From assembly GCA_021463465.1 (NCBI GenBank), contig JAJTYH010000002.1:73799-137798 (forward strand): a stretch of 64,000 bases of DNA, written 5' to 3'. Each line of letters opens with the position of its first letter. The stretch's first letter is position 1. Below the pieces are notes generated by a model. It was given only the letters and a program-made list of their open reading frames with translations. It had not been told where the DNA came from and ran no database searches. The stretch is from a bacterium. GTDB lineage: Bacteria; Patescibacteriota; Dojkabacteria; SC72. The translations under genes and the position numbers were made by a program. This document shows positions 6,506 through 24,614 of this stretch, piece after piece.

Positions 6506-6521
6506 AGAAAGTCCAAGCTAT

Positions 6522-7517: not shown

Positions 7518-7556
7518 TCCCTTAACAGTTACAGTTGGTTTACGCTATAATTATAC

Positions 7557-7710
7557 CGCATTACCTAAACCTAGTAATAGGCATGGTGATAAAAATTGAA
7601 TCCACGACGAATAACGCGGCTCTCCGGCCGGTCCATTCGTCGTGGTCTATATCTCGAAAGGGATATGGGGGTTCCGAAAGGAACTCGCTGGTTCGGAGGG
7701 CCACTTTTGT
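7557..7710 (+). ncRNA. structured leader/ncRNA, copy 1 (three GNRA-tetraloop hairpins plus 11-bp stem); homolog of 21740..21890 on minus strand
   Basis: Promoter TTAACA(7523-7528)-17nt-TATAAT(7546-7551); hairpins CCTA-GTAA-TAGG, CCACGACGAAT/ATTCGTCGTGG (7602-7612/7635-7645), ATATCTC-GAAA-GGGATAT (7649-7666), GGTTCC-GAAA-GGAACT (7670-7685), tail CGCTGGTTCGGAGGGCCAC; same architecture with compensatory changes in second copy. Confidence 0.6.
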
Positions 7711-7743
7711 TATACCTCCAGAGATAAAATAAATCAGATAAAC

Positions 7744-8448
7744 ATGCAAAAGTATACAGTTACAACTCTAAAAGAGGAGCTAGTAAAAATAATAATTGAA
7801 ACACCGTTACAAGAGGTGTATTGGGAAACAATCGGCTATTCAGAAAGACCTAAACCAGGATCGCTTATCTCAGATTTATTCAAGCTATTAGTAGGTAAAA
7901 AGTCTCTCAGGGAGCAGAAACTTTACAACTTCATTTTCCTTGAACTCATCATTTTAGCCATCTTTGATATCGCAGTCTGGTTTGAGAAAAGAAACCGTGA
8001 CTATCTATTTAACGCAGTTTTTATAGCGATTCTAGTCACCGAAATATCATCGATCATGTCACAAGATCAATTAAGAGGTTCTTTCTTTAAAGGCATCCGT
8101 GAGGCTATTGAATACATATCATTAGGGTTTAACAGCTATAAGCACAACGATCCTATAAATGCGTTTAGCAAACGTCTAGAAAATATACAAAGCGAATCAG
8201 AAGCTTCAGATCAAAAGATAGAAAGTATTCGAAATGGCTTTAAAAACTTATTTCAAACACCCACAACACTTAGTGGAAAAAGTCTTTTGCTAAGCTACCC
8301 TGATTTGGATGCCCACTTCTTTAAATATTATGAGAAAGAACAGTTTGATTTATCAAATGACAGCCCTACAGAGAACCCGATAGGAAAGGGGTTCAATCGT
8401 GATGATCTGAAATTCGCTACAGAAATGCTATTTTATAAGAAGAAATAA
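7744..8448 (+). CDS. membrane protein (2 predicted TM helices); ORF-track start 7642 lies inside the upstream structured RNA, ATG 7744 preferred
   Basis: Hydrophobic segments LYNFIFLELIILAIFDIAVWF and LFNAVFIAILVTEISSIM; ATG at 7744 directly after RNA element. Confidence 0.5.
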   Translation: MQKYTVTTLKEELVKIIIETPLQEVYWETIGYSERPKPGSLISDLFKLLVGKKSLREQKLYNFIFLELIILAIFDIAVWFEKRNRDYLFNAVFIAILVTEISSIMSQDQLRGSFFKGIREAIEYISLGFNSYKHNDPINAFSKRLENIQSESEASDQKIESIRNGFKNLFQTPTTLSGKSLLLSYPDLDAHFFKYYEKEQFDLSNDSPTENPIGKGFNRDDLKFATEMLFYKKK

Positions 8449-8464
8449 ATCGTATTACAAAAGG

Positions 8465-9403
8465 ATGAAATCAAAAATAGTGGGTTCAATATTTGCTCAC
8501 GCCAGTGGAGATTACCTTGGTATGCCCGTTGAATTTGCTTCTACACCCGCACAGGTACAGGATTTCTTCGGTAGTGAAGGCATAAGACCTATTGATACTA
8601 ATAGCAGGGGAACGAAACCAGCTGGTTACTATACTGATGACACGGCTATGATGCTGTGTTTAGCCCAGAGTCTCATAGACAAAGGATTCGATACCTTAGA
8701 TCAATTCCAGAAATATAAGAAGTGGGCTTTTGAAGGATATATGTCTGCTGATGGAAAGACTTCTTTTGGAATAGGACAGAATACATTAAGGAAACTAATG
8801 TGGCAGAAGCCGGAAGAAATACCTACAGCAATTCATAGCAACGATAAAGAAGGTGGAAACGGAGCATTAATGAGATGCCTTCCTATTGGACTCATATACC
8901 ATAACAATACTGATGATGTAGTTGATAAGAGTATAAAATCAGCACTTGTTACGCACAACAATACCATTGCGGTTTGGACTACAGTTGTATTCAATACACT
9001 CATAACATACTGCCTGCATAATATTGAGAAAGAGGGGTTTGTATCAAAACTCGCAACAGAGCCCTACTATAAAAATATCCCCGCTGAAATAAAGAAAGTG
9101 CTGGATAGACTAGGTAATCTAAAAACGGAGGAGCTCAAGACCAGTGGATACTCACTTAATACCTTGGAGGTCGCTCTGCATTCATTTTTCAGCTCTGATA
9201 GTCTGGAAGCTGCTATCAAGGCATCAATTGGTTTTGGAGGCGATACAGATACTCAAGGGGCGGTCACAGGAGGTCTTGCTGGAGCATATTACGGTTATGA
9301 AGCAATTCCAAAAGAATGGACAGCTCACTTATTAAATAAAGAATTGATGCAAGAGATCTCAGATAAGATAGCCTCGATATCACTTAGCACACCTAATACA
9401 TAG
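8465..9403 (+). CDS. ADP-ribosylglycohydrolase family protein
   Basis: N-terminal GSIFAHASGDYLGMPVEF and GYYTDDTAMMLCLAQSL motifs characteristic of ARH/DraG family; 312 aa. Confidence 0.75.
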   Translation: MKSKIVGSIFAHASGDYLGMPVEFASTPAQVQDFFGSEGIRPIDTNSRGTKPAGYYTDDTAMMLCLAQSLIDKGFDTLDQFQKYKKWAFEGYMSADGKTSFGIGQNTLRKLMWQKPEEIPTAIHSNDKEGGNGALMRCLPIGLIYHNNTDDVVDKSIKSALVTHNNTIAVWTTVVFNTLITYCLHNIEKEGFVSKLATEPYYKNIPAEIKKVLDRLGNLKTEELKTSGYSLNTLEVALHSFFSSDSLEAAIKASIGFGGDTDTQGAVTGGLAGAYYGYEAIPKEWTAHLLNKELMQEISDKIASISLSTPNT

Positions 9404-9619
9404 GTAACCTTCCAGTGATTCGATTAACTTTCCACATCTTCTGGAACACTTAGGACATTGAAACCAAAGTCTTTCTCCTCCACCATTTGTATTTGTTGTT
9501 GTCATCGGGACATTAACTCCATCAAGATCAAGCTTTGACTTGATTAAAGCTTCGATTACCTTACTCCGAACACTTCTAACCAGCTCATGAATTGTAATGC
9601 TCTTAGAATAACCCGTCAT
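9380..9619 (-). CDS. small zinc-ribbon protein
   Basis: 79 aa with CPKCSRRCG...CIRC (CxxC...CxxC). Confidence 0.35.
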   Translation of the reverse strand: MTGYSKSITIHELVRSVRSKVIEALIKSKLDLDGVNVPMTTTNTNGGGERLWFQCPKCSRRCGKLIESLEGYLCIRCAK

Positions 9620-10185
9620 TGATTCTCGGGAATTATTTTATCCTTTTGCACAACATTCAACTGCTGATTAGTTCCAAATAGATTGTTTAGAGTACCAATC
9701 TTCACATTTATTGGACGTGCTCTGAGCTGGATAAGCAATTTCATATTGTCCTCGTAATGTTTATGCGCTCTATCCAGTTCTCGACCTATCATTGAACAGT
9801 ATCTGTCTCTGCCAAATAACAAATCGGGATTATTTAAGAAGCTGTTAAACGATGTTGTTAGCTGAAGAATACGCACATACGAAACTGCTATATTATGAAT
9901 GATTATTTTCTCCGAAGGTTTAACGACTTTCAGTTCATTCTCAAGGTCTCTCACAATCTGAACAATGTACGACTTATACTCCTCGTCTACAGCTTTAGAA
10001 AGTAGTGAAAGGTTATCCATGTTCAATGAATACATATACTTTTTTGCTAGAAGACACGTTTCAACAGATGCTTTCCCTTCATCTTTGTTGTATGACTTCA
10101 CTAGCTCATCACCCAGAAATTCTGGGTCATCCTTGTTTAAATATATTTTCTTAACCTCTTTAATCCCTTTATTCATACTATTCAT
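9616..10185 (-). CDS. hypothetical protein
   Basis: 189-aa ORF, 4-nt overlap with downstream zinc-ribbon ORF (operon-like). Confidence 0.45.
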   Translation of the reverse strand: MNSMNKGIKEVKKIYLNKDDPEFLGDELVKSYNKDEGKASVETCLLAKKYMYSLNMDNLSLLSKAVDEEYKSYIVQIVRDLENELKVVKPSEKIIIHNIAVSYVRILQLTTSFNSFLNNPDLLFGRDRYCSMIGRELDRAHKHYEDNMKLLIQLRARPINVKIGTLNNLFGTNQQLNVVQKDKIIPENQ

Positions 10186-10241
10186 TTTACATCAAAATAA
10201 TGATTAAGTAACATTACCGTACCGCCATCAAAGCTGTATAA

Positions 10242-11144
10242 TTGACGTATCTAAATCAGATTAAATATATGGAACCATTAACAAGCCTTAACCTCAATAT
10301 AATCCCTCCGGAAAAGCCTAAAAAAAGAGGAAAACTTAAATATAAAGAAGGATTTTTAGTTGAGAATAAATACGATGACCCGTATATAGAGGTCGAGTAC
10401 ACTGTAAGAATTAAGAATGCGATTTCAATGTCGAAATTACTTAATGTCTGTCCATGGTTTGTAGAAATTGTAAGTAAATTTAGAAAAACACATAAACTAG
10501 AGGGCAATGAATTCACTCTAGAAGATCTAAAAATACTTAATGAGGATCTATTCTCCGAATGGAATATTGAAACGCACCCATACAAAGTCAATTTATCTTT
10601 TATTGATAAACTTAGCCTCAATCGTGCAAGGGAGATATATAAAAGTGCGATACATATGTGTGAAGAGCTAGAAACAGCCAGTAATTTTAAAACTATTGAG
10701 AAGTACCTAAAAAGATTTGACACTCATTTAGTCAATATTCTCTTAACAAATTCAATTGATCTAAGTAGATACTCCGTATATGCAGGCATTGCTATTATTC
10801 CAGGAGAGTTCCTAATAAATGTTGATAGGAATGCTAAGTATATTGAACTTGATTCGGAAGTTACTATCCCAACCTTAGTTTCATATATCAAGAACTATAG
10901 CTTTGCAATAAGTTCCGGTCAGGAGATTGATGCTCTCAATATTGATGATAAAACAGTTGATCTTTTAAGATACGGTTTTGTAGATAGCTACGGTAAATAT
11001 AATAAGTTGATGGTAAAGAGTAGCCATTATCCCCATCAAAAGTATTCTGCGATAAAACTTAAGGATATGTTTAAACGGAAGAAACAGTATCTTAAGGAAA
11101 AAGGGCTCATTTCATTATTTAGGGAAACTTCTACAGCCAGTTAA
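10242..11144 (+). CDS. hypothetical protein
   Basis: 300-aa ORF, no recognisable motif. Confidence 0.45.
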   Translation: MTYLNQIKYMEPLTSLNLNIIPPEKPKKRGKLKYKEGFLVENKYDDPYIEVEYTVRIKNAISMSKLLNVCPWFVEIVSKFRKTHKLEGNEFTLEDLKILNEDLFSEWNIETHPYKVNLSFIDKLSLNRAREIYKSAIHMCEELETASNFKTIEKYLKRFDTHLVNILLTNSIDLSRYSVYAGIAIIPGEFLINVDRNAKYIELDSEVTIPTLVSYIKNYSFAISSGQEIDALNIDDKTVDLLRYGFVDSYGKYNKLMVKSSHYPHQKYSAIKLKDMFKRKKQYLKEKGLISLFRETSTAS

Positions 11145-11208
11145 AATTACCGCCGACTTACTAAAAATTTAGCTGTAGGATTGGGTTGTTAAGATAAAAC
11201 CCAATCAA

Positions 11209-11599: not shown

Positions 11600-13681
11600 A
11601 TGAATAACATCAAAGAATTACTGCAAAAGCACAACATCACAATCAAAAGAGAAGTCGGACATGAACTCATGGTTGATTGTCTCTTCAATAGCTGCGACGA
11701 AGATAGCAGACAGAATGAAGCACATCTTTATATAAATTCACAGACCGGTGCATTTGATTGTAAAAAATGCGGAACAAAAGGAGGTTTCAAAGAATTACTA
11801 GGAATACTTGGGGAAACTGAAAAAACCGAGCAGTCCAATCAGTACTCCCCATATAATTATAGTAAATACGAAGAAAAATTAACACAGGAAGACATTAACT
11901 ACCTGATCAACAAAAGAGGATTAACAATTGAGACTATCAAGAACCATCATATCGGTGTTGCGAACTTCTATAAATCACGATGGCTAACAATCCCATACTT
12001 TGATGAGCAGGGTATATATAAAGAGGCATACAAGCTTCGCACTACTGTAGAAAATTATTCTCCCAAGTATAAAGTCTATCCGATTGGTGCACACATGACA
12101 CTATACGGGCTTGATAAACTCAACAAAGATTTAGACTACGTAATTATATCTGAAGGGGAGTTTGATTGTATGCTTCTACATCAGGAAGGCATGAATGCAG
12201 TCAGTGTCGGAACGGGTGCAGCTACCTTCAAAGATGAATGGTTTGAAGCACTTACTCCATACAAGAAAGTATATATTTGCTTTGATAATGATGAGGCAGG
12301 TCGGAAAGGAACAGAACAGTTAAGGACAAAACTTAGTTTCAAATGTCCAGACAAACGAATATTCAGAATAAACTTTGATTCTAAATATAAAGATATAACT
12401 GAACTTCATGTAGCTGGAGGGTCAATTGAGGATGCGTTCGCAAATGCAGAAGAAATGGAAACATATGCAACGCCTAGAAATGAGATGTCCATCCAAGAAC
12501 TACAAGGCATCCTTGATGCAACAATCAAAGAGGACGATGTAAACAAGGTCGTAACATTCCTCGCAATGCTAACGATGTATACCAAGGATTCCCAGCTGAA
12601 TTTGATGTATTCAGCACCATCGTCAACAGGAAAAAGCTACATACCGATTGAAGTATCAAAGCTATTCCCAGAAGAAGATCTTATTCAATTGGCTTATGTT
12701 TCTCCGACTGCCTTTTTTCACGATCAAGGGGAGTATGATGAAAGTAAGAATCAAATAGTAATGGACTTTCATGGAAAGGCTATAATATTTCTTGATCAAC
12801 CAAATTCTATACTCCTTGAGCGATTAAGACCGATTCTCTCTCATGATAAAGAGGAAGTACTAATCAAAATTACTGATAAGAACTTAAAAGGTGGGAATAA
12901 GACCAAGAATGTTTTGATGAAAGGATTTCCAGCAGTGATATTCTGTACAGCGAATACCAATACTAATGAACAAGAATTAACAAGAGTATTGCTCCTCAGT
13001 CCAGAAACGACACAAGAGAAAATCAAGTTTGGTATTAAAAACAGAATATTACTAGAAAGTGATAGGGAAGCCTACTACGATAAGATAGAAGCTAATATTG
13101 AAAGACAGGAGCTGAAAAAGCGAATCAAAGCTATCAAATATTCAAATATTAATCATGTGAAGGTGAACAACTGGCATGAGATATATGAAGAGTACATTGA
13201 GTCTGAACAGGTACTCAAACCAAGGCATCAACGAGATTCAGGAAAGCTTATTCAATTAATTGTTTCGTTGGCACTACTCAATCAATGGAACAGGAAGAGA
13301 ATTGATGATAAGACAATTGAAGCCTCTGAACAGGATGTTAAACAGGCTCTAGTACTCTGGAAAGAGATATCGTTAGCTCAAGACCTTGAAATACCACCAT
13401 ATGTCTTAAGTTTCCTTTACCAAGTCGTTGGACCAACAGCAATTGAACATAGTAAAAATCCAATCGTAGATGATATCGTACTAGGCAAAAGACTACTTAT
13501 AAAGCTCTATAGAGAAATTTACAAAGTGATCGTTAGCCCTAAGGAACTTCATAACAAATATATGGCTCCACTTGTAAATGCAGGAATTTTTGAAGAAATT
13601 CAGGGGTATTCGGATGGTCGTGAAAAAGATTATCTATTAACAGAGTTTGGGCTAGAAAAAATAAATATTAAGCAAGGGTAG
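11600..13681 (+). CDS. DNA primase/helicase of mobile element (CHC2 zinc finger + Toprim + P-loop NTPase; P4-alpha-like)
   Basis: CDEDSRQNEAHLYINSQTGAFDCKKCG zinc-binding motif; Toprim VIISEGEFDCMLL...ICFDNDEAGRKG; P-loop SAPSSTGKSY; 693 aa. Confidence 0.8.
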   Translation: MNNIKELLQKHNITIKREVGHELMVDCLFNSCDEDSRQNEAHLYINSQTGAFDCKKCGTKGGFKELLGILGETEKTEQSNQYSPYNYSKYEEKLTQEDINYLINKRGLTIETIKNHHIGVANFYKSRWLTIPYFDEQGIYKEAYKLRTTVENYSPKYKVYPIGAHMTLYGLDKLNKDLDYVIISEGEFDCMLLHQEGMNAVSVGTGAATFKDEWFEALTPYKKVYICFDNDEAGRKGTEQLRTKLSFKCPDKRIFRINFDSKYKDITELHVAGGSIEDAFANAEEMETYATPRNEMSIQELQGILDATIKEDDVNKVVTFLAMLTMYTKDSQLNLMYSAPSSTGKSYIPIEVSKLFPEEDLIQLAYVSPTAFFHDQGEYDESKNQIVMDFHGKAIIFLDQPNSILLERLRPILSHDKEEVLIKITDKNLKGGNKTKNVLMKGFPAVIFCTANTNTNEQELTRVLLLSPETTQEKIKFGIKNRILLESDREAYYDKIEANIERQELKKRIKAIKYSNINHVKVNNWHEIYEEYIESEQVLKPRHQRDSGKLIQLIVSLALLNQWNRKRIDDKTIEASEQDVKQALVLWKEISLAQDLEIPPYVLSFLYQVVGPTAIEHSKNPIVDDIVLGKRLLIKLYREIYKVIVSPKELHNKYMAPLVNAGIFEEIQGYSDGREKDYLLTEFGLEKINIKQG

Positions 13682-13751
13682 GGTAACCAAAAAAGTTTAC
13701 AAGAGTTTGTAGACAGGTTATTATGAAGTGCTTACCTAACAATACAATACT

Positions 13752-13830
13752 CGAGACGAAAAGGGAGTCCAGTTCCAATGCTACGTCTCGTAGTTGTTGG
13801 GTAAGCACTGGGCTCCCTTTTGTTATTTAA
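13752..13830 (+). terminator. putative rho-independent terminator / nested inverted repeats downstream of primase gene
   Basis: AAAAGGGAGTCCAG (13759-13772) pairs with CACTGGGCTCCCTTTT (13806-13821) followed by TTTTGTTATTT; additional 7-bp IR CGAGACG/CGTCTCG (13752-13758/13784-13790). Confidence 0.45.
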
Positions 13831-13847
13831 ATTAACAATAACTAGCG

Positions 13848-15458
13848 ATGGAACTAAAAAGAAAAGCTTCCAAATATATTCTTTATGCACGTAAATCAAC
13901 TGAAGGAGAAGACCGACAACAGGCTTCTATAGAATCTCAAATTGCTGAAATGCAAAAGATCGCTTTGGAATACGGTTTGAATATTGTAGAAGTCCTTTCG
14001 GAAAGCCGATCCGGATATAAACTTGGAAGACCTGAATTTCAACGCATGATAGGTATGCTTGATAATGGAGAAGCAGATGGAATTCTTTGTTGGAAACTTT
14101 CAAGATTGTCTAGAAATGCCGATGATGGAGGGAGGATAATAGGAATGTTGCAGAGAGGAGAAATAAAGCATATCAAGACTTACGATGGTGGTTGGTATCC
14201 CGAAGATGACCACATGATGATATTCCTAGAGTTAGGTATAAACAACAAGTTCAGCAAGGATCTCGGAACGGATACTAAGCGTGGTTTAAGGGCAAAAGCT
14301 GAACGAGGATGGTACCCATGCGCAACGTTACCTTTAGGGTATAAACACCATCCAGAAGAGGTTTTAAAGAAACATTCTGACATGGAGATCATACCTGATG
14401 AGCCCATGTTCAGTATAATAAAGGCCATGCTCAAAGAATTAGCGGAGAAAAAATTTTCTCCGAAGCAAGTCTTTGATCATGCTATCGCTAACGGCTTCCG
14501 CACACGTAAAGGTGGCATACCTTCTTTCTCTGTGTTCTATCGTATAGCGGAACATCCTTTCTATTATGGAGAATACAAATTCACAATTGACGGAGAGGAG
14601 CAAGTGTTTCAAGGAAAGCATAAACCAATGATAACAAGGGCTGAATACGAGTCTATACAGAAGGTTAAAGGTCGCGGTCACATTGTAAAACAGCAAAAGT
14701 ATTTCCACTCATTCACTGGACTAATGAAATGTGGAGAGTGTGGGTGTTTCATTACCGGAGATCCCACTAGACTGAAGACAAACAAGAAAGGGGAAGTTCG
14801 GAAGTTTACATACTATCATTGCACAAAAAAGAAAGGGCCATGTTCGCAACCTCATATCACACAAGAAGACCTGATAGAAACATTTGATAAAGTACTTAGC
14901 ATGATTCATATCCCCGAGGAATTAGTTGATTATGCATTAGAGGAAATACAAAAAGAGCATCAGGAGAAGAAGCTTGCAAGAATGGGTGTACTAAAGAATA
15001 ACCAAAAGGAGTATGAAGGACTAAGTAAAAAGCTAGATTTACTTACAGAGAAAAACTTAAACGGAGTGATAGATGATGAGGAATACAAAAGAAAAAGAGA
15101 TCAGATTAAATCCCATATGTCACTAGTACAATCACTAATCAACACCAATGATAGTTCAAGAGATGAATGGCTGATGAGAGTAAAGAAGAGGTTATCGTTC
15201 GCAGAAAGGGCATGTAGAACATTCAGAACAGGGTCTCCGGAGCTAAAGAAGGACATCATGATGGAGTTACAGTCTCAAATCATCGTTAAGGATAAGAGTA
15301 TAAAGCTAGATCTAGACCCATTACTAAGCCTCTTTTTCAAGAAGCCTAATCAACACGATCTTGAAAAAATATTGGTTCGAACCAAAACAAATGAAGTAGG
15401 GACAAACATATTCGAAATTTTCTTTTCCAACAATTCCATCTGGGGTGGAAGATGTTGA
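13848..15458 (+). CDS. large serine recombinase (island integrase 1)
   Basis: N-terminal resolvase domain YARKSTEGEDRQQASIESQ (catalytic Ser), recombinase domain, zinc ribbon CGECGC...C, coiled-coil; 536 aa; 3' end of gene carries tggggtggaagatg repeat of tRNA-His 3' end. Confidence 0.9.
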   Translation: MELKRKASKYILYARKSTEGEDRQQASIESQIAEMQKIALEYGLNIVEVLSESRSGYKLGRPEFQRMIGMLDNGEADGILCWKLSRLSRNADDGGRIIGMLQRGEIKHIKTYDGGWYPEDDHMMIFLELGINNKFSKDLGTDTKRGLRAKAERGWYPCATLPLGYKHHPEEVLKKHSDMEIIPDEPMFSIIKAMLKELAEKKFSPKQVFDHAIANGFRTRKGGIPSFSVFYRIAEHPFYYGEYKFTIDGEEQVFQGKHKPMITRAEYESIQKVKGRGHIVKQQKYFHSFTGLMKCGECGCFITGDPTRLKTNKKGEVRKFTYYHCTKKKGPCSQPHITQEDLIETFDKVLSMIHIPEELVDYALEEIQKEHQEKKLARMGVLKNNQKEYEGLSKKLDLLTEKNLNGVIDDEEYKRKRDQIKSHMSLVQSLINTNDSSRDEWLMRVKKRLSFAERACRTFRTGSPELKKDIMMELQSQIIVKDKSIKLDLDPLLSLFFKKPNQHDLEKILVRTKTNEVGTNIFEIFFSNNSIWGGRC

Positions 15459-17107: not shown

Positions 17108-17719
17108 TTATTCGAAAATATCCATTATGTTAATTGTATCTTTCTCAAGCCTTTCAAATTTAATTACCCCAACAGTCCTCCTATTCTCATCATTAGTGTA
17201 ATGTCCTTCAAGCAGGTTGGAGTTTATTACTTTCAAATAACTAAAACCTTCATGCATTCCACCGTTTGTACTATTTTGTAAAGTGCTATCTTTCGGCCTA
17301 TTGATGTATTTGTACAAAAGATACCATCTACCATTTTGTTCTTGTTCCATTAAGCAAATAGTGCTATCTGAACACGAATTAGCAAACTCAGTTGAAACAA
17401 ATAATTTTAAATAATTCTGCTTGATTTCAGCAACACCTTCATACTCATTGGCACGATTATCATAGGAAGATTTCACAGTAACTTTCCATTTTCCCGAAAG
17501 ACAGGGTTTAAATCTCAGACCAAAAACATATGCAATCGTTGTAACAAACTTCGGGTAATCCAACTTCCAAAGAAAATTATTCCACAACGCAACCAGGAAG
17601 AGAATAATTACAACAACAGCCGAAGTAGGAATAACCTTATTGTCGAAAAATGAATTCACACCATGAATAATTAGGGTAATTGTAATCAAAACAGATATAG
17701 TTTTCTTATAATCATTCAT
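17108..17719 (-). CDS. 2-TM membrane effector-like protein (SLATT/Cap15-like architecture)
   Basis: Two N-terminal TM helices (VLITITLIIHGV..., AVVVIILFLVALW) followed by ~140-aa soluble domain; 6 nt downstream of nucleotidyltransferase gene. Confidence 0.5.
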   Translation of the reverse strand: MNDYKKTISVLITITLIIHGVNSFFDNKVIPTSAVVVIILFLVALWNNFLWKLDYPKFVTTIAYVFGLRFKPCLSGKWKVTVKSSYDNRANEYEGVAEIKQNYLKLFVSTEFANSCSDSTICLMEQEQNGRWYLLYKYINRPKDSTLQNSTNGGMHEGFSYLKVINSNLLEGHYTNDENRRTVGVIKFERLEKDTINIMDIFE

Positions 17720-17725
17720 CGAAGT

Positions 17726-18475
17726 TTACCTTTCAATATACTCTCCAGCTTTATTTAAATATGTTATAGCATCGTTTAAATCCCAGTTATTCGTAAATAG
17801 TGAATCTTGTTCATTTGCACACTGAAAACCACCAATACGATTAGACTTCACAGCATCAAACAAAAACTGCATTGTTACTATTGTAGAATTAAATAAATCT
17901 CCATCAAAACATGGGCTAGAACAATTGTAAATTAGATTCTCTATGAAGTATGACGGGGCTAATCCTTTCTGCAAGTCTCCAGTTTCTTCAAGTTCTCGTT
18001 TAATATTCTTGAATATCCTCACTACTTTTTTGAATACTCCATCTGTATCAATATTTTTTGACTCACAGTTTTTCAAGTGAAGTTTTGGATAATTAATTAT
18101 TTGTGTATTCTCGTCTGTATCATAGAATTTGATACCAGGAACAAAGTCTTGGTCGCTTAGTGATAGAAACCTTTTGTAGAACCGGAAAGAAAAACAAGGA
18201 ACAACATCAGCATTAACCTTTCCATAACTTTCGGGAATCCTCAAACATTTAGCATGAGGTTCAATGTTTTTAAATGTTTTTACCAAGGCTAATAACAAAG
18301 CCTCTTTATATTCTTTAAACGTAATCAAAGCATCCGAAAAAGATTGTTCATACTTAACCTTTTCCTCATCAGATAATTGCGTAATATCACGGCCAAAGAC
18401 TGACTGAAGTTCAACCACAATATCAACATCACTATTATTAGAGATGTTTGTATGGTTTGCGTATGACCCTTGCAA
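17726..18475 (-). CDS. pol-beta superfamily nucleotidyltransferase, SMODS/CD-NTase-like (true N-terminus probably extends upstream to ~18649)
   Basis: GS-x12-DVD (GSYANHTNISNNSDVDIV) and third acidic residue in NADVVPC (DhhP); in-frame upstream region encodes expected helix ...FSLSNFTYDVYLQ but lacks ATG/GTG/TTG. Confidence 0.6.
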   Translation of the reverse strand: MQGSYANHTNISNNSDVDIVVELQSVFGRDITQLSDEEKVKYEQSFSDALITFKEYKEALLLALVKTFKNIEPHAKCLRIPESYGKVNADVVPCFSFRFYKRFLSLSDQDFVPGIKFYDTDENTQIINYPKLHLKNCESKNIDTDGVFKKVVRIFKNIKRELEETGDLQKGLAPSYFIENLIYNCSSPCFDGDLFNSTIVTMQFLFDAVKSNRIGGFQCANEQDSLFTNNWDLNDAITYLNKAGEYIER

Positions 18476-18792: not shown

Positions 18793-19863
18793 ATGAGACA
18801 AGAAGGCCAATTCAAATTTATAGACTTATTTGCTGGTATAGGAGGTATTAGGATTGCATTTGAAAACGCAGGTGGTGTGTGTGTGTTTTCCAGCGAAATC
18901 AATGAAGCTTGTCAAAAGACTTATTATGCAAATTTCGGAGAGACACCACAAGGTGACATTACACTTATTAATCCCAAAGATATTCCGGACCATGATATAT
19001 TAACAGCCGGATTCCCTTGCCAGCCTTTCTCGATAAGCGGTAAAAGACTCGGTTTTGAAGATACTAGGGGAACATTGTTCTTTTATATCTTAAACATTGT
19101 TAAAACTAAAAAACCAAAAGTTGTTTTATTAGAGAACGTAAAGCATTTAGTACATCATGATAGAGGTAATACAATTAAGGTGATTCTTAGAAGCTTAGAG
19201 GAACTTGGTTACAATGTGTCATGGAAGGTTCTGAATGCGAAAGATTTTGGGCTTGCACAGAATAGAGAACGAATTGTTATTGTCGCCAGCAAAGCAAATA
19301 AGTTCAATTTCAATTTAATGCCGTCAAGAAACGAGAAAGTCTTTATTAAAGATATCTTGGAAAAAGATGGTGATTTTGAATATCTTAAACCGGAAGAATA
19401 TACAATTCTTGATGAGAAGTACTGGAAACGTCAGATTAGCGGACTTATCTTTTGTGGATACAGAAACAAGAAAATAAGACAAAATGGAGTAAGAGAAAAC
19501 ACAATACACCTCTCCAGAGTTCATAAGCAACCAAATAGAATTTATTACATAGACGGGACACACCCGACAATTCCATCTCAAGAGACATCTGGTAGATTCT
19601 GGATATACGATGGGAAAGTAGTTCGTAAACTAACAATAACAGAGTGTTTCAGATTGATGGGGTTCCCTGACGAGTATAAGAAAGTTTCTGCAACAGGTGA
19701 ATTATATAAACAAATAGGTAATTCAGTACCAATAAACTTGATAAATTCCGTAGCCAAAAGTATTGTGAATCAAGAGTTACTCAATGCAAATGATATAAAC
19801 ACAAAACATATTCCGGAACTGTCCAAACAATTGAATTTTACATCACTTAATTATGGAGAATAA
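18793..19863 (+). CDS. DNA (cytosine-5)-methyltransferase
   Basis: FAGIGGIRIAF (motif I), GFPCQPFS (motif IV), ENVKHL (motif VI); 356 aa. Confidence 0.9.
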   Translation: MRQEGQFKFIDLFAGIGGIRIAFENAGGVCVFSSEINEACQKTYYANFGETPQGDITLINPKDIPDHDILTAGFPCQPFSISGKRLGFEDTRGTLFFYILNIVKTKKPKVVLLENVKHLVHHDRGNTIKVILRSLEELGYNVSWKVLNAKDFGLAQNRERIVIVASKANKFNFNLMPSRNEKVFIKDILEKDGDFEYLKPEEYTILDEKYWKRQISGLIFCGYRNKKIRQNGVRENTIHLSRVHKQPNRIYYIDGTHPTIPSQETSGRFWIYDGKVVRKLTITECFRLMGFPDEYKKVSATGELYKQIGNSVPINLINSVAKSIVNQELLNANDINTKHIPELSKQLNFTSLNYGE

Positions 19864-20962
19864 CGATATTAGAAACTATCTCGAGGAAATTTATGGTAAA
19901 GCTGAATCGAATTATAAAAATTCAATTCTAAAAAACTATGATTCAATTGACCCAAAGATTAGGGAGTATCTGGAGTTAATAGTTTCAAGTGTGGAAGATT
20001 TTCTAGGTGTATTAAATGTAACAGTTACAAGTTTAACCTACAAATCTTTAAACCCCAATCAAGATATTCGAAACCACCAAGCACAACTTGAAAAGGGTTA
20101 CTCTGGCAGGAGTTTTGACACACGATATATTGCACCATTTCTGAAATCGAAAGGACTAAAATCTATGAAGGAGTCGGGTTGGCTTACCCGTTCCTTGGAA
20201 CAGGCATCTCCTTATACCTTGGATTACAGGGGTAAAATCAGAGACTTAAACGTTAAAGAGGCCTTTTTAAAGACTCTGCATCATGTAGAAGAGGAAAATG
20301 GAAATTCTTTACTTATGCTTGAATATCTTTTACTTCTCCTTATCAAACAGCGTGAAGACAGCAAAGTAGAAATAGAACATATTAGCAACCCTGACCTGCA
20401 GATATCAAAAATACTAGAAATGCTTAGTATTCACTTTGAACAAGCAACTTCAAATGGGAGGGCAAGATTACCCGTACTTGCAATCCACTCTATTTATCAA
20501 CTATTAGTTAATGAATTAGAAAGGTATGATGAGAAAGAGTTACAGGAACTAAGTTCGCATACATCTGCAGATTTAAGACACGGCGATATCGGAGATGTTC
20601 AAGTAAATTATGCTGATGGGACTCCCTTTGAGGCCGTTGAAGTAAAGTACGGCATAAAAATAACAGAATCACTCATAATCGATGCATACTCGAAAATTAA
20701 GCAAACAAAAGCAAAAAGATACTATATGTTATCAACGGTAGAAAGTTCCAAAAAAGAACTAGAGGAAATTATTGCAAAGATTAAAGATGAACACGGTTGC
20801 CAAATAATAGTGAATGGGCTACTAAAAACAATAGAATATTATCTTAGACTCATAAGTAATCCAGAACTTTTTGTGAACATTTACACTGACCTTGTAACAA
20901 GTGACAAGGTAATTAAAACCGAACACAAAGTTCTTTGGAAAAAACTTCTACAAAATTTGTAA
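19853..20962 (+). CDS. putative type II restriction endonuclease (PD-(D/E)xK) cognate to MTase at 18793
   Basis: Start overlaps MTase stop by 11 nt; HGDIGDV...FEAVEVKYG fits D-x(n)-(D/E)xK nuclease motif; 369 aa. Confidence 0.5.
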   Translation: MENNDIRNYLEEIYGKAESNYKNSILKNYDSIDPKIREYLELIVSSVEDFLGVLNVTVTSLTYKSLNPNQDIRNHQAQLEKGYSGRSFDTRYIAPFLKSKGLKSMKESGWLTRSLEQASPYTLDYRGKIRDLNVKEAFLKTLHHVEEENGNSLLMLEYLLLLLIKQREDSKVEIEHISNPDLQISKILEMLSIHFEQATSNGRARLPVLAIHSIYQLLVNELERYDEKELQELSSHTSADLRHGDIGDVQVNYADGTPFEAVEVKYGIKITESLIIDAYSKIKQTKAKRYYMLSTVESSKKELEEIIAKIKDEHGCQIIVNGLLKTIEYYLRLISNPELFVNIYTDLVTSDKVIKTEHKVLWKKLLQNL

Positions 20963-20968
20963 TTACGA

Positions 20969-21700
20969 TTATTTAGAGAGATATTTTGCTTCAATTTTCA
21001 AAACATTTGCTGTATCCAAAAGCCCAGCAGTAATATTCAAAGTGCTATCACTAATCATTTCATTATATGTTTTAATGTTTTCCAATCTCCTTGATGGCGT
21101 ATCTCCATCTAAAAAGGATTTAGCCTCTCTGGACCAGCCTCTCCAGTTACTGCAATAGCCTATGACTTCACTATTCAATTCATCAAACTTTATATAAGCG
21201 TTTTGAGGCCACTTGTCAGTGGAAAAAGCATATTTATTGAAGTCGCACTCCCTTGCATAATCCTCGATATCAAAGACTGTTGCATAAACACTTACACCAG
21301 ATTTCCCACTCACTGACGCTTGATAATTTTTGTAATAGGTATCAAAGTTCTTAGTACCGGTTGTTACATTTTTGTAATATTTCAAGTAATCATTTTGAAT
21401 TTGTTTCTGTTCTTCAACAGTTAGTTGTTCCCACTGGGGTCTATTTATCTTCTTTGCGGAGTCTGAATTCGTCCCGCTGAAACCTGAAATTAATCCTGAA
21501 ATACCTGCAACTGCAAACATAATAACAAAGACTAAAGCGATAAGTGACATACATCCACTGTTCTTTTTAGGTTTTTCGTTATTTACCGTTGAAGGGGATG
21601 AGGAGAGAATACTTTTCTTCTCTTTATCAAACTCTTCCTGAGTAATCACTTTGTCTTTGAGGAGTTTTGAAAGCTTTTCAAGCTGTTCGGCCTTTTCCAT
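20969..21700 (-). CDS. SHOCT-domain membrane protein
   Basis: N-terminal SKLLKDKVITQEEFDKEKKSIL (SHOCT-like), single TM helix (CMSLIALVFVIMFAVAGISGLI), extracytoplasmic domain; preceded by structured RNA copy 2. Confidence 0.5.
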   Translation of the reverse strand: MEKAEQLEKLSKLLKDKVITQEEFDKEKKSILSSSPSTVNNEKPKKNSGCMSLIALVFVIMFAVAGISGLISGFSGTNSDSAKKINRPQWEQLTVEEQKQIQNDYLKYYKNVTTGTKNFDTYYKNYQASVSGKSGVSVYATVFDIEDYARECDFNKYAFSTDKWPQNAYIKFDELNSEVIGYCSNWRGWSREAKSFLDGDTPSRRLENIKTYNEMISDSTLNITAGLLDTANVLKIEAKYLSK

Positions 21701-21739
21701 AACTAGATTCTAATAATTTATCTAGCTTGGTCTAAAAGG

Positions 21740-21890
21740 CAAAGGTGGCCTCCCGAACCAAGCGATAAGTCCTTTCGAACCTATCCTGCACTCTTTCGAG
21801 TACAGACCCAAAGCACGAGTGCCGGTCAGGAGACCGCTTTTACGTGCTTTGGGTTTTATATCCATGCCTATTTCTAGGTTTAGGAGTTGT
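21740..21890 (-). ncRNA. structured leader/ncRNA, copy 2 (homolog of 7557..7710)
   Basis: On minus strand: TGTATAAT promoter (plus 21896-21901), CCTA-GAAA-TAGG, 11-bp stem CCCAAAGCACG/CGTGCTTTGGG (plus 21807-21817/21843-21853), GTACTC-GAAA-GAGTGC, AGGTTC-GAAA-GGACTT, tail CGCTTGGTTCGGGAGGCCAC; compensatory base changes relative to copy 1. Confidence 0.6.
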
Positions 21891-21972
21891 GGTCAATTAT
21901 ACAATTTTGAAATCGTATTGCATATATATTGGACGTATAAACATTGTACTCAAAACATGTTAATATTAGCTT

Positions 21973-22473
21973 ATGAAATCAAGAGAATATGCCAATCTAG
22001 CAAAAAAGGCTTACAACGAATTTAAGAATATTAAAGGGACAAGAGGGAAAAGGCTAGACTACTCACAAATATCCTTTCTCAAAGAAGCTATAGATGCGGT
22101 ATCCAGGTTAATCCTCTATGAAAAGACTAAAAAGCATTTTGTTCGTGCAAGTAGTACTTGGAAATTTGTCACCATAATAGCGAAGCATTCTCCTCAAAGT
22201 GCGATTCAGCGGATACATATCAATTATCTTTCAGATTCAGAAAAGTTTCTAAGAGAATCTTCAAGAGACACTAAAGTTGAAACTGGGAAATTTGAGACAA
22301 CAATTTTATATTTAGAGGACCTTTACAAGAAACTCTGCGATATTGCAGATGACTTGGACGATATTATGCAAGACATTCCAGAGGATGAAATACCAGAAGA
22401 CGATGATGATAACAATGGAAATATTACTGTTCAAGACGATGATGGAGAAGTGACAGTAGGTTTAAAGAAATAG
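21973..22473 (+). CDS. hypothetical protein with acidic C-terminal tail
   Basis: 166-aa ORF; C-terminus DIPEDEIPEDDDDNNGNITVQDDDGE. Confidence 0.45.
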   Translation: MKSREYANLAKKAYNEFKNIKGTRGKRLDYSQISFLKEAIDAVSRLILYEKTKKHFVRASSTWKFVTIIAKHSPQSAIQRIHINYLSDSEKFLRESSRDTKVETGKFETTILYLEDLYKKLCDIADDLDDIMQDIPEDEIPEDDDDNNGNITVQDDDGEVTVGLKK

Positions 22474-22483
22474 TGCAACAATT

Positions 22484-22858
22484 ATGCAACAGTTTAAGCC
22501 AAATGAACTACAACTTAAATTGCTAGAAACGATGCTTGACACAAGTGTTTCCTCGAATATCACGGAGATATGTAGTGTCGCAGGAATTGACAGAAGCACA
22601 TATTACCGATGGATGAAAGACCCAAGCTTTGTATATTGGTTTAGTAAGGCCTGGAAAGAGTCTGTAATGCCCCTAGAACCTTTATTAGACAAAATAGCGA
22701 TAAACAATGCCTCTAAGGATTTTAGATACTACAAACTGATTCAGGAGAAGTACTTTATTAAAGCAAAAGCATCTCCTTTTCTCATAAATGTAAATAGTGC
22801 AGATAGGTTACTAGATGCAGTTGATAAGTTAGAAGCGTTATATGCGAATGAAGAATAA
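22484..22858 (+). CDS. small HTH DNA-binding protein (possible excisionase/recombination directionality factor or terminase-small-subunit-like)
   Basis: ITEICSVAGIDRSTYYRWMKD helix-turn-helix; immediately upstream of serine recombinase. Confidence 0.4.
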   Translation: MQQFKPNELQLKLLETMLDTSVSSNITEICSVAGIDRSTYYRWMKDPSFVYWFSKAWKESVMPLEPLLDKIAINNASKDFRYYKLIQEKYFIKAKASPFLINVNSADRLLDAVDKLEALYANEE

Positions 22859-24558
22859 TATATCTCCACGGATGAGTGAATACATTGAATCCTACATTCG
22901 AACTCATCAAAGAGAATCAATTGATGTAACAAAAGAAGAGAAAAAGTATGTTTTATATTTAAGAAAGTCCTCGAAAGATAAAGACAAACAGGTGCAATCA
23001 ATTAAGGACCAGCGAAAAGATTGTTACCAATACGCAAAAAGAGAAAAGATAAGGATTGAAAGAATATTTGAAGAAAGCCAATCAGCAATGATTTCTGAAG
23101 GGAGGGATGCTTTTAAAGAAATGATGGAAGAGATAAAGAAAGGAACATACAACTCAATTCTAGCTTGGCACCCTGATAGGCTGGCGAGGAATATGAAGGA
23201 TGCTGGTGAGATTATAGATTTATTAGATAAAAAGATTCTCATGGATTTAAAATTCCCTTCGTACACTTTCGTAAATAACGGTAGTGGTAAGTTGGCATTA
23301 GGAGTGCAATTTGTCTTGGCAAAAAATTACTCTGACAATCTATCAGTCGTAACTAAAAGAGGTAATCATAAAAGGTTTGAAGATGGCGAGGGAATAAGAA
23401 GCAATAAATACGGATATAAATTAGTTCGAGTTGGTGACGCAAAAAAAATATAGACCAGATGGAAAGAACTTTGAACTTATTCAAAAAGGATTTCAAATGG
23501 CTTTAAACGGGCGACCTGTTGCGGAAATTGCCGACTTCATAAATCGAGAGGGGCTAACCTTAGAAGTAAACGTTAAAAAAGACAATGAAAAGAAAGGCCT
23601 AAAAAAGGGTAAACAGCACATTCATATTACATTACTTCCCCAATCTGTATCTAAATTACTTGCGAATCCCTTCTTTGCCGGAATCCATGTAGTAGGGGCT
23701 AAGGTCTACGATTATAGAGTACTTGATACAGGATTTTTGCCAATCATTTCCGAGGATGACTTTATAAAATTGAGAATTAAACTAGAGTCAAACTCTAACT
23801 TTGTGAAAAGAAGAACGGTAGACAATTCCAGGTTCCTTCCGTTAAAAGAGATGATTACTTGCAATTACTGCAAGGGTCCTATGTATGCTGGAGTAACAGG
23901 TAACGGCAAAGGCAATTATTACCTTCGATACAGATGTGAAACGGAGGACTGTCGGCGAAGAGATAAGGCTTATAAAAAGAAGTACAAACTAAGGGAAAGT
24001 GTACGTGGTGTTCTTATTATTGACTTCGTATTCGAATATTTTAAAAACCTTGATGTGCCAAGGGATTTATACGAGAACTGGGTAACTGAAATAAAGAAAA
24101 TGCGAAAGAAATTCCTTAAAGGCTATTCAACTGAGATGCGAAAAATAGAGTGGCAAATAAAAAAATTAGAAGACGAGATAAGTGTATTGACGCTTACACT
24201 AGCTGATACAACAAAGAAAGCTGTAAGTAGAAGTCTAGAAGGAAAGATTAATGAAAATGCTGATTTAATCGAAGACTTAAGAGATAGAGAACAAGATTTA
24301 AAAAAACAGAGAGATAATTATGAAGTGATTTCTGATAAGACTTTATGGTCGTACGAGAGTTTTACAAACTTCCTGAAAAACGTTGCTAATATAGTAAAAA
24401 GGAAGAGAAGTATGGAACTCCTTGATAAAGTTGTTCGATTGGCCTTTACAAACATTGTGATAGGTAATGGGAAAGTGGTTTCATATAAACTAAAACCGGC
24501 ATTCGAAGCTATCGAAAAACTGCGTCCAATAAACCATGGGGTGGAAGATGGGACTTGA
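22842..24558 (+). CDS. large serine recombinase (island integrase 2), apparent frameshift at A8 tract 23433..23440 (ORFs 22842..23453 + 23431..24558)
   Basis: N-terminal resolvase domain YLRKSSKDKDKQVQSIKDQ (catalytic Ser) in first ORF; recombinase/zinc-ribbon (CNYCKG...C) and coiled-coil in second; 3' end overlaps tRNA-His 3' end. Confidence 0.75.
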
Positions 24559-24614
24559 ACCCACAACCCCCTGTGCCACAGACAGGTGCTCTAACCGATT
24601 GAGCTACATCCACC
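24537..24614 (-). tRNA. tRNA-His (GTG) with encoded G-1 and CCA
   Basis: Cloverleaf: G-1, acceptor GTGGATG/CTTCCAC, anticodon loop CTGTGGC (GUG), T-arm GTGGGTTCAAGTCCCAT, discriminator C + CCA. Confidence 0.85.

Follow-up and report, generated by a model that had tools for sequence, protein, structure and literature searches.

The RNA motif LOOT, whose name is said to stand for 'lots of tetraloops', reportedly came to light in marine metagenomes without a classified host and was guessed to be a small RNA (sRNA). The discovery reportedly goes back to Weinberg et al. 2017 (NAR 45:10811), with LOOT treated only in the supplement of that study (PMC5737381). Rfam types the family (RF03000) as 'Gene; sRNA', from metagenomes, and its published model ends at helix P4 and has an inner hairpin in P2. 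LOOT is given as a "metagenomic-based" family in the Rfam 14 paper (PMC7779021), is described with ~43 base pairs, six helices and unusually many cross-covariations in the CaCoFold paper (10.1101/2020.02.04.933952), and received two additional covarying pairs in the Rfam 15 paper (PMC11701678). In the searchable literature, to which the supplement of the discovery paper does not belong, we found no functional study of LOOT and no host assignment. Here, we analyzed a stretch of 64,000 nucleotides from a bacterium of the Dojkabacteria (Patescibacteriota; assembly GCA_021463465.1, contig JAJTYH010000002.1, positions 73,799 to 137,798 of the forward strand; the whole stretch is referred to as the window), which carries two LOOT copies, and compared these copies with their relatives. 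In contrast to the published family description, the LOOT RNAs characterized here possess a conserved 3' tail that forms a predicted pseudoknot and a 5' leader, they occur mostly in Patescibacteria on elements with a serine recombinase, and a gene usually follows directly downstream. This combination of host clade, mobile-element backbone, leader position at a cargo slot, pseudoknot and tetraloop receptor appears to be undescribed in the searchable literature.

Among the described systems, the pseudoknot riboswitches (ZTP, fluoride, preQ1 and SAM-II) resemble LOOT in their position in the 5' untranslated region (5' UTR) and in a tail with two alternative partners, a loop upstream and a segment downstream. 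In LOOT, we designate the tail as segment B, its upstream partner as segment A and its downstream partner as segment C. LOOT differs from these riboswitches because it has no Rfam riboswitch match, its pseudoknot is much longer (12-17 bp), its competing hairpin is neither a terminator nor an element that sequesters the ribosome-binding site, and the associated genes share no function. A looser likeness exists to the CI RNA of phage P4 (seqA/seqB/seqC) and the c4 RNA of P1/P7, which are short structured operon-leader RNAs of satellite or temperate elements and in which one segment has complements on both sides, upstream as well as downstream. The A-B-C arrangement of LOOT, found in satellite-like elements (integrase, primase, TerS-like protein), is comparable to these immunity RNAs by analogy only. 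Unlike in the P4 and C4 systems, segment A of LOOT lies inside its own fold, LOOT heads a cargo unit and not a replication operon, and no complementary target of LOOT was found in the divergent operon. The Rfam family C4 (RF01695) had no match in the window scan at the gathering threshold. Finally, the put RNAs of phage HK022 and EAR, which mediate processive antitermination in cis, are similar by position only, each being a promoter-proximal structured RNA, on a phage-like element in the case of LOOT, that could act on the transcribing polymerase. Here the differences are the short LOOT transcription units, the lack of sequence or structural similarity, and the fact that no downstream terminators in need of suppression were identified.

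Two LOOT RNAs in the window

An earlier note on this DNA, made from the sequence alone, had described a structured RNA on the minus strand at 21735-21945 as the second, divergent copy of an RNA encoded elsewhere in the window, and had treated it as a new family. When the whole window was searched against Rfam 15 at the curated thresholds, both copies matched LOOT (gathering score 46.4 bits). Copy 2 at 21742-21888 on the minus strand reached 71.1 bits (E = 2.3e-11, core match 21764-21886), and copy 1 at 7560-7707 on the plus strand reached 59.8 bits (E = 1e-8, core match 7562-7686), with both spanning the full model (positions 1-121). A covariance model made in this study (R1, see below) recovered copy 2 with 37.1 bits (E = 2.7e-9) and copy 1 with 34.1 bits. 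The hallmarks of LOOT, which are an internal loop in P1, a long second helix and two tetraloop-capped hairpins, are present in both copies, and every structural criterion of the family (model score, P1 loop, tetraloop hairpins, covarying helices) was found. The P1 internal loop, CCUAAaC / GCAUGG, surrounds a capped hairpin at 21884-21862 in copy 2 and at 7564-7586 in copy 1. The hairpin caps are GAAA, GAAA and GAAA in copy 2 and GUAA, GAAA and GAAA in copy 1. Sequence and structure comparison makes it near certain, and far above chance, that both window sequences are LOOT RNAs. Hence, the RNA structure is real, and the two copies are divergent members of one family with the same architecture as had been noted; the family itself is catalogued already and not new.

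The -10 box, P1, the 11-bp stem, two GAAA hairpins and the tail that had been described for the minus strand are all contained in copy 2. The long helix that the earlier note named P1 is the second helix, P2, and the RNA runs further toward the 3' end than had been noted, as its tail pairs with the P2 loop and the segment 21740-21725 can pair with the tail. The features of copy 2 are the following, all on the minus strand:
21903-21896, minus strand: extended -10 element TGTATAAT, a predicted promoter read from the sequence
21742-21888, minus strand: LOOT RNA copy 2 with P1-P4 and the conserved 3' tail (Rfam RF03000, R1)
21862-21884, minus strand: P1 module with CCUAAAC (21884-21878), cap CCUA-GAAA-UAGG and GCAUGG (21867-21862), a likely variant of the 11-nt GAAA tetraloop receptor
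21807-21853, minus strand: P2 stem of 11 bp, CCCAAAGCACG (21853-21843) with CGUGCUUUGGG (21817-21807), from fold and duplex prediction
21835-21821, minus strand: segment A, the 5' strand of the predicted pseudoknot in the apical region of P2, GGUCUCCU...
21786-21805, minus strand: P3 hairpin CUGUACUC-GAAA-GAGUGCAG, its loop (21797-21794) the likely partner of the P1 receptor according to the P3 loop statistics of the family
21765-21784, minus strand: P4 hairpin AUAGGUUC-GAAA-GGACUUAU with its cap at 21776-21773, read from the sequence
21747-21763, minus strand: tail segment B, GCUUGGUUCGGGAGGCC, predicted to form the pseudoknot with A and, alternatively, to pair with C (duplex prediction, cognate test, covariation)
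21725-21740, minus strand: segment C, GCCUUUUAGACCAAGC, which complements B; CACCUUU forms the loop of the B:C hairpin (local fold -22.0 kcal/mol)
21702-21724, minus strand: small AU-rich hairpin CUAGAU-N11-AUCUAG, ending 2 nt before the start codon of the SHOCT gene, in copy 2 only
20969-21700, minus strand: cargo gene (243 aa), whose product has a SHOCT-like segment at its N-terminus (Pfam SHOCT E = 4.9e-5, which misses the Pfam cutoff) and one hydrophobic segment

The corresponding features of copy 1 lie on the plus strand:
7522-7551, plus strand: promoter-like site, TTAACA, 18-nt spacer and TATAAT, based on 11/12 consensus matches only
7560-7707, plus strand: LOOT RNA copy 1 (Rfam 59.8 bits, R1 34.1 bits)
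7618-7626 with 7694-7702, plus strand: predicted pseudoknot, GGCUCUCCG with CGGAGGGCC, from duplex prediction
7744-8448, plus strand: cargo gene for a 234-aa protein without a family match and with two hydrophobic stretches; its start codon lies 36 nt past the model end

Transcription of copy 2 is predicted to start ~7 nt past the -10 box, near 21888. The 5' leader that is conserved in the family is mostly missing in the window copies, where P1 starts ~7-10 nt past TATAAT. The cargo start codon of copy 2 is located 41 nt past the end of the model match, and the AU-rich hairpin in front of it (21702-21724) may affect translation initiation of the SHOCT-like cargo gene. No Shine-Dalgarno sequence was evident before the main gene of either window copy.

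The AUG in the GCAUGG motif opens reading frames of 47 and 49 codons through the window LOOTs (21722-21865 on the minus strand and ~7584-7733 on the plus strand, respectively), which terminate 21 and 11 nt short of the main start codons. Their presence in both copies, and their ends so close to the main genes, would fit a protein-coding fragment or a conserved leader peptide. However, across the family this frame is open through LOOT in 30 of 98 members, compared with 26 and 20 for the other frames, and the sequence variation tracks base pairs and not codons, so that we consider a coding origin practically negligible. A duplicated protein-coding fragment, which the earlier note had named as the explanation that would overturn its own, was thus tested and rejected. 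Reinitiation from the 47- and 49-codon frames is conceivable for the two window copies, the frame not being conserved in the family.

Conserved helices, a pseudoknot and an alternative pairing of the tail

Relatives of the window copies were collected with the search pattern CCTAAACC N6-18 GGCATGG NNNN AAA, which retrieved 20 viral stretches and at least 120 genome stretches. As a plain MAFFT alignment of the divergent copies was structurally inconsistent, R1 was seeded from a single sequence (L018, the best Rfam-verified match with 93.8 bits) and extended over the 3' tail. The resulting sample comprised at least 98 LOOT RNAs, of which 2 are the window copies, 6 lie on viral contigs and at least 90 were found in at least 89 genome records. 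Even the 18 weakest R1 matches all exceeded the Rfam LOOT threshold (52.8-79.5 bits).

According to this family comparison, the LOOT RNA has a length of ~150-165 nt and starts a few nucleotides after a -10 box. In a model-guided alignment of 97 sequences, 93.3% of the pair cells were paired, compared with 58.8% after shuffling of the 3' partners and 33-39% when the partners were slid. Double-sided changes occurred at 35 of 39 pairs, and the covariation score was 0.770 versus 0.192 for the shuffled and ~0.09 for the slid control. The P2 columns were 95% paired with double changes at 11/11 pairs, and the P3 helix was 97.7% paired. When the two window copies are placed in a model-guided alignment, 5 P2 pairs, 4 P3 pairs and 3 P4 pairs show compensatory double changes between them, in agreement with the compensatory mutations from which a conserved fold had been proposed; the covariation in the family points in the same direction. 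As judged from these comparisons, an anatomy consisting of a P1 receptor, the long stem P2, P3 with a GAAA loop, P4 with any stable tetraloop and a tail that forms a pseudoknot is near certain.

Past P4, and hence beyond the end of the Rfam model, the members share a conserved tail that typically reads ...CUGGCGGCGGGCUUUGUGUU. Pairing between this tail and the apical region of P2 was first indicated by RNAalifold, and duplex prediction yielded an A:B pseudoknot of 12-17 bp in nearly all members. The mean duplex energy of A:B was -21.9 kcal/mol, compared with -11.8 kcal/mol for a shuffled tail, and was at or below -10 in 97 of 98 members. When each tail was combined with its own and with non-cognate P2 loops, the own loop paired more stably (-22.9 versus -14.1) and ranked in the top 5% for 66 of 85 members. 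Also on alignment columns that are unpaired in R1, the A:B cells were 84% paired (73% when shuffled, 43-54% when slid), with double changes at 13 of 14 pairs. The many U-G pairs in A:B fix the functional strand and show that the constraint acts on RNA. In window copy 2, GGUCUCCU... (21835-21821) would pair with ...GGGAGGCC (21763-21747). These data suggest that the Rfam LOOT model is incomplete with respect to the pseudoknot and the receptor.

The G-rich tail segment B is followed by UUUGUGUU, and in many members segment C is located just past UUUGUGUU. Formation of the B:C hairpin would exclude the A:B pseudoknot. B:C is the weaker of the two pairings and was found in about a third to a half of the members (own partner -14.4 versus -11.3 for non-cognate partners, top 5% in 23 of 85). 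A pairing of ACAA in the 5' leader with UUGU in the tail was also considered and was discarded, as no association was found (Fisher p = 0.78).

A likely GAAA tetraloop receptor in P1

The P1 motif CCUAAA(C)/(G)CAUGG is closely similar to CCUAAG/UAUGG, the 11-nt GAAA tetraloop receptor of group I and group II introns and RNase P. LOOT and these receptors share the CC:GG pairs, the UAA(A) platform region, the AUGG strand and a GAAA-specific partner loop in the same RNA, which in LOOT is P3. The difference is confined to the position of the canonical G.U, which is A/C in LOOT (CCUAAA/CAUGG). An A.C in place of G.U could be an isosteric protonated wobble. The search pattern imposes the P1 motif, so that its conservation is not measurable from our sample; the Rfam consensus, which is independent of it, gives the motif in upper case and hence as conserved. 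Of 98 members, ~93 have GAAA as the P3 loop, whereas the P4 loop varies (GCAA in 38, GAAA in 31, UUCG in 13 and GUAA in 3). A near-invariant GAAA in P3 combined with a variable P4 is the specificity expected of the partner of an 11-nt receptor. The "conserved linker motif" of the earlier note is likely a variant of this receptor, with P3 as the likely partner, which may dock within one molecule or between molecules, and would then be a folding device and not a ligand pocket.

Among the sequences matching the search pattern were also group I introns from viral contigs that contain the LOOT P1 module, CCUAAAC-hairpin-GCAUGG, and this shared module supports the receptor assignment. At one locus (L004, 8793-8824, minus strand), the module is part of a peripheral hairpin insert of an Rfam-verified group I intron. 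At another (L001, 1099-1121, minus strand), the conserved AAGAUAUAGUCU is directly preceded by a 23-mer that matches P1 of window copy 1 at every position. Locus L001 gave no intron match at the Rfam gathering threshold; we read its module as probably occupying the P8 position of a group I intron, where such receptors are known.

LOOT at the border of a hypervariable cargo slot

Most members begin with the conserved single-stranded sequence ACAAYUNAAUA. A TAnnnT hexamer usually ends 6-7 nt upstream, so that ACAAYUNAAUA probably represents the 5' end of the transcript. Downstream of LOOT, 92 of 98 members have an open reading frame (ORF) of at least 40 aa that starts with ATG on the same strand, at a median distance of 35 nt past the model end (mostly 10-56 nt). 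An ORF was present within 60 nt in 78 of 91 cases, whereas positions drawn at random from these loci gave 21% (p ~1e-39). The LOOT transcription units usually comprise one to three genes, which are followed by convergent genes. Since ~35 nt to the start codon leave no room for a promoter, the cargo presumably depends on the LOOT promoter, and LOOT would be its leader.

An N-terminal hydrophobic segment was detected in 54 of 92 downstream products. Other products are DNA methylases, zinc-ribbon proteins and many proteins of no assigned family. The earlier note had linked the RNA, as a cis-regulatory leader, to membrane or envelope genes, and had counted copy 1 among those that precede a membrane protein. 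The latter is plausible, with the two hydrophobic stretches of the 234-aa product being located, by eye, at ~residues 60-105. Likewise, the same-strand genes directly downstream and their frequent hydrophobic N-termini speak for a leader of genes that often encode membrane proteins. They do not form a coherent envelope regulon; the downstream genes are a hypervariable cargo slot.

In related elements, homology extends from the recombinase side through LOOT and ends 0-50 nt past it (for example L092/L138, L008/L136, L012/L024, L068/L140, L003/L037, L116/L129 and L029/L036). This break right after LOOT places LOOT in the element backbone and the start of the variable cargo slot behind it, and based on these alignments we regard the location of LOOT at the border of a cargo slot as near certain. 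A sharp homology break, together with the inverted repeat that B, the loop and C make up at the DNA level, would also be expected if LOOT acted as DNA, with an incidental RNA fold, for instance as a site of recombination or attachment or as a homology arm through which cargo is exchanged. However, P3, P4 and the pseudoknot contain many G-U pairs, which the opposite strand would carry as A-C mismatches. In addition, tetraloops of the GNRA and UUCG types and a tetraloop receptor are devices of RNA, and attachment likely takes place where the recombinase gene ends by a tRNA gene. We therefore consider a DNA-level site very improbable.

The hypervariability of the cargo also bears on the riboswitch-like role that had been proposed. 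A classical metabolite- or ion-sensing riboswitch, in which a ligand-stabilized pseudoknot controls membrane protein genes, would be in line with the 5' UTR position, with the many membrane proteins among the downstream products and with a loop-to-tail pseudoknot whose tail has an alternative partner, as in the expression platforms of pseudoknot riboswitches. Yet the downstream genes are swapped among related elements with no common ligand logic apparent, which argues against such a riboswitch. Moreover, the alternative hairpin is neither a terminator nor sequesters a ribosome-binding site, the conserved unpaired nucleotides belong mostly to the receptor and the GAAA loop, and copies without a downstream gene exist (see below). 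Consequently, we regard a classical riboswitch as quite improbable.

Possible role of LOOT on the cargo transcript

We propose that LOOT plays a cis-acting leader role on the cargo transcript and assign a probability of roughly 45% to this reading, which is built on sequence comparison. LOOT would be the promoter-proximal leader of the element, a compact receptor-locked domain that acts in cis on any cargo mRNA located downstream. It would set how much of the cargo transcript continues or survives, either by read-through past the pseudoknot and the U-rich tract or through stability or processing. The switch would consist in tail segment B exchanging its partners, between the A:B pseudoknot, which abuts the U-rich tract, and the B:C hairpin. 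The signal would more likely be a factor of the element or the host than a metabolite, and stable LOOT RNA may in addition be set free and serve a separate role.

Several observations weigh against this proposal. A canonical terminator precedes any ORF in ~6-7 of 96 members (L012, L024, L029, L036, L037 and L058, with L018 being borderline), and these stand-alone LOOTs still carry segment C. Hence, LOOT has a function without cargo, and the interplay of A, B and C does not solely serve cargo control. The separate terminator after these LOOTs further speaks against efficient termination by the pseudoknot and the U-tract alone. Inspection by eye generally revealed neither a U-tract after the B:C hairpin nor a fourth attenuator segment, for which reasons a four-segment attenuator was dropped as a candidate. 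A switch that sequesters the Shine-Dalgarno sequence was rejected as well, because the predicted accessibility of the ribosome-binding region was 0.537 and 0.534 with B sequestered and free, respectively (p = 0.73). Furthermore, a helix of 15-17 bp between a closed hairpin loop and the tail is topologically demanding, so that the hairpin and A:B may form at different times and not together. The sample itself is a part of the family, and the search pattern, which requires the receptor motif, biases it toward one part of the family.

The stand-alone copies indicate that the RNA has a function of its own and make a trans or dual role a serious alternative to the cis-acting leader. In this case, LOOT would be an autonomous sRNA of the element that acts in trans, for example in maintenance, in immunity or on host factors, and the cargo would be expressed by read-through from the LOOT promoter. 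Terminated stand-alone copies are conserved in two diverged sub-lineages (L012/L024 and L029/L036/L037), the two recombinase elements in the window carry one LOOT each, the RNA is part of the backbone rather than of the cargo, and most of the conserved nucleotides are accounted for by folding motifs and not by a cargo-related platform. Against an sRNA acting in trans, ~86-94% of the LOOTs run into an ORF without room for a promoter, and the 5' region of the divergent gene showed no cognate complementarity to A, B, C or the 5' leader. A broader search for B-complementary sites yielded no information, being swamped by background from the G-rich probe. We consider an autonomous sRNA possible and, compared with a leader role in cis, rather doubtful; the label of LOOT as an 'independent sRNA' is questionable. 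With regard to the choice between a cis-regulatory leader and an sRNA that the earlier note had offered, the leader position of most members favors the former, while the ~6-7 stand-alone copies with their own terminator speak for the latter.

In one stand-alone sub-lineage, a reverse transcriptase gene (RVT_1) was found ~2 kb from LOOT (L012, 565-1668; L024, 508-1593; L074), and a link to a diversity-generating retroelement or retron is possible. The 5-kb contig of L024 also contains two different LOOT copies in convergent orientation, ~500 nt apart (3616-3763 on the plus and 4273-4414 on the minus strand).

LOOT could also function without any switching, as a passive 5' structural cap or insulator whose nuclease-resistant fold stabilizes and standardizes any cargo mRNA. 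The predicted location at the very 5' end of the transcript, the rigid architecture of tetraloop receptor and pseudoknot, and the Shine-Dalgarno-like sequences on some cargo genes (seen by eye and uncounted) are compatible with this function, which would work with any cargo. Simple 5' hairpins suffice in known cases, however, and a passive cap leaves the complexity of LOOT, the cognate A:B covariation and the B:C pairing unexplained; moreover, terminated stand-alone copies have nothing to stabilize. We thus deem a mere cap unlikely, more so than an sRNA acting in trans.

Mobile elements and hosts of LOOT

Of the at least 89 genome records with LOOT, 69 are named, by eye, as members of the candidate phyla radiation (CPR)/Patescibacteria (Saccharibacteria, Paceibacteria/Parcubacteria, Microgenomates). 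The remaining records comprise 9 unclassified "bacterium" and 11 with other labels, several of these on short contigs. One of the loci, L143 (DUKX01000142.1, labeled Methanofastidiosum and binned with an archaeal MAG), carries a close relative of copy 1 with 82% identity over 192 nt in a comparison with window positions 7560-11200, and its downstream gene families and their order are the same as those of copy 1. These similarities point to a mis-binned contig or else to an element whose host range is wider. A Tycheposon or Prochlorococcus origin was considered and rejected, as the tycheposon preprint does not mention any non-coding RNA and the hosts are CPR lineages.

The largest gene family in the neighborhood of LOOT, present at 32 loci, is a large serine recombinase, which is usually located upstream in divergent orientation, at -140 to -170 nt in ~12 loci. 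Two gene maps recur. In the first, a divergent recombinase is followed by LOOT, the cargo gene(s) and a convergent block that encodes TerL (phrog_38, 1e-84), a TerS-like helix-turn-helix (HTH) protein and an N6/N4 DNA methylase. In the second, the recombinase, a DUF5659 protein and an uncharacterized protein of 250-700 aa are all divergent from LOOT, and an excisionase-like HTH protein is sometimes encoded directly upstream of LOOT. In three loci, the divergent neighbor of LOOT encodes an XRE-type HTH protein. At least one hallmark gene occurs within 5 kb in 56 of 98 loci. Eight proteins encoded divergently beside LOOT had no Pfam matches. In at least 10 loci besides the window (L111, L099, L057, L070, L033, L026, L054, L052, L101 and L121), the recombinase gene runs with its 3' end into a tRNA gene (for Leu, His, Gln, Asn or Glu), and this recurrent overlap indicates integration at tRNA genes. 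From these gene neighborhoods we consider it near certain that LOOT is a backbone part of integrative, phage- or satellite-like elements with a large serine recombinase, mostly in Patescibacteria.

The location of the window copies on mobile elements, as previously suggested, agrees with the recombinase, the tRNA overlap and the phage-like neighbor genes. The window probably contains two such elements in tandem, with one LOOT each and with boundaries that we infer from the gene content. The backbone genes of the two elements are the following:
21973-24558, plus strand: divergent backbone operon of element 2 with a 166-aa protein, a TerS-like HTH protein (22484-22858; PHROG terminase small subunit, 6.8e-10) and a split recombinase (Pfam Resolvase, Recombinase, Zn_ribbon_recom)
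22842-23453 and 23431-24558, plus strand: the overlapping recombinase ORFs of element 2, the first with Resolvase and the second with Recombinase and zinc ribbon (Pfam)
24537-24613, minus strand: tRNA-His(GUG), into which the recombinase gene extends with its 3' end (ARAGORN)
11600-15458, plus strand: backbone genes assigned to element 1, a Toprim primase-like protein (11600-13681) and a second large serine recombinase (13848-15458) (Pfam)

The gene order in element 2 is CBASS genes, C5 methylase and partner, SHOCT protein, LOOT copy 2, 166-aa protein, TerS-like protein, split recombinase and tRNA-His, the last of which is probably the integration site. Direct repeats of the tRNA-His gene that would mark the element ends were not found. 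The recombinase of element 2 could be a frameshifted pseudogene or could be expressed by programmed frameshift; the split was also observed in two independent Logan assemblies. The CBASS genes by copy 2 encode a CD-NTase C-terminal domain (17726-18475) and a Cap15-like protein (17108-17719). The C5 DNA methylase gene (18793-19863) overlaps an ORF for 369 aa without a family match (19853-20962), which may encode the restriction partner of the methylase.

In element 1, the order is PIN protein, LOOT copy 1, 234-aa protein, ADP-ribosylglycohydrolase, more genes (one of them clustering with DUF5659), Toprim primase-like protein and recombinase, where the genes at 11600-15458 presumably belong to the same element as copy 1. 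An AAA ATPase (5372-6505), PIN_12 (6522-7517, divergent from LOOT) and the ADP-ribosylglycohydrolase (8465-9403) surround copy 1, and the genes in this region (5372-9403) look like another defense- or toxin-like cargo set.

A more far-reaching interpretation would make LOOT the hallmark non-coding RNA of phage- or satellite-like serine-recombinase elements that integrate at tRNA genes and form a large undescribed family in Patescibacteria, and either a partner-exchanging conformational device that couples the state of the element or host to defense and membrane cargo, or a multimeric RNA particle assembled via GAAA and receptor. Multimeric RNA particles have reportedly been seen for the ROOL and GOLLD RNAs. 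We put this interpretation forward as tentative and, on the present sequences, unlikely.

Implications

LOOT has been in Rfam as a metagenomic sRNA candidate since 2017, and its placement with respect to host, element backbone and cargo slot makes its function testable. As a ready marker, it can be used to find such elements. LOOT could also serve as a portable promoter-plus-leader module in genetic tools for Patescibacteria, for which inducible expression systems are missing (PMC11665869). The cargo slot holds membrane proteins, and the LOOT elements also carry restriction-modification and CBASS genes. LOOT would thus offer a handle on how the ultrasmall, largely uncultured Patescibacteria and their mobile elements express accessory and defense genes.

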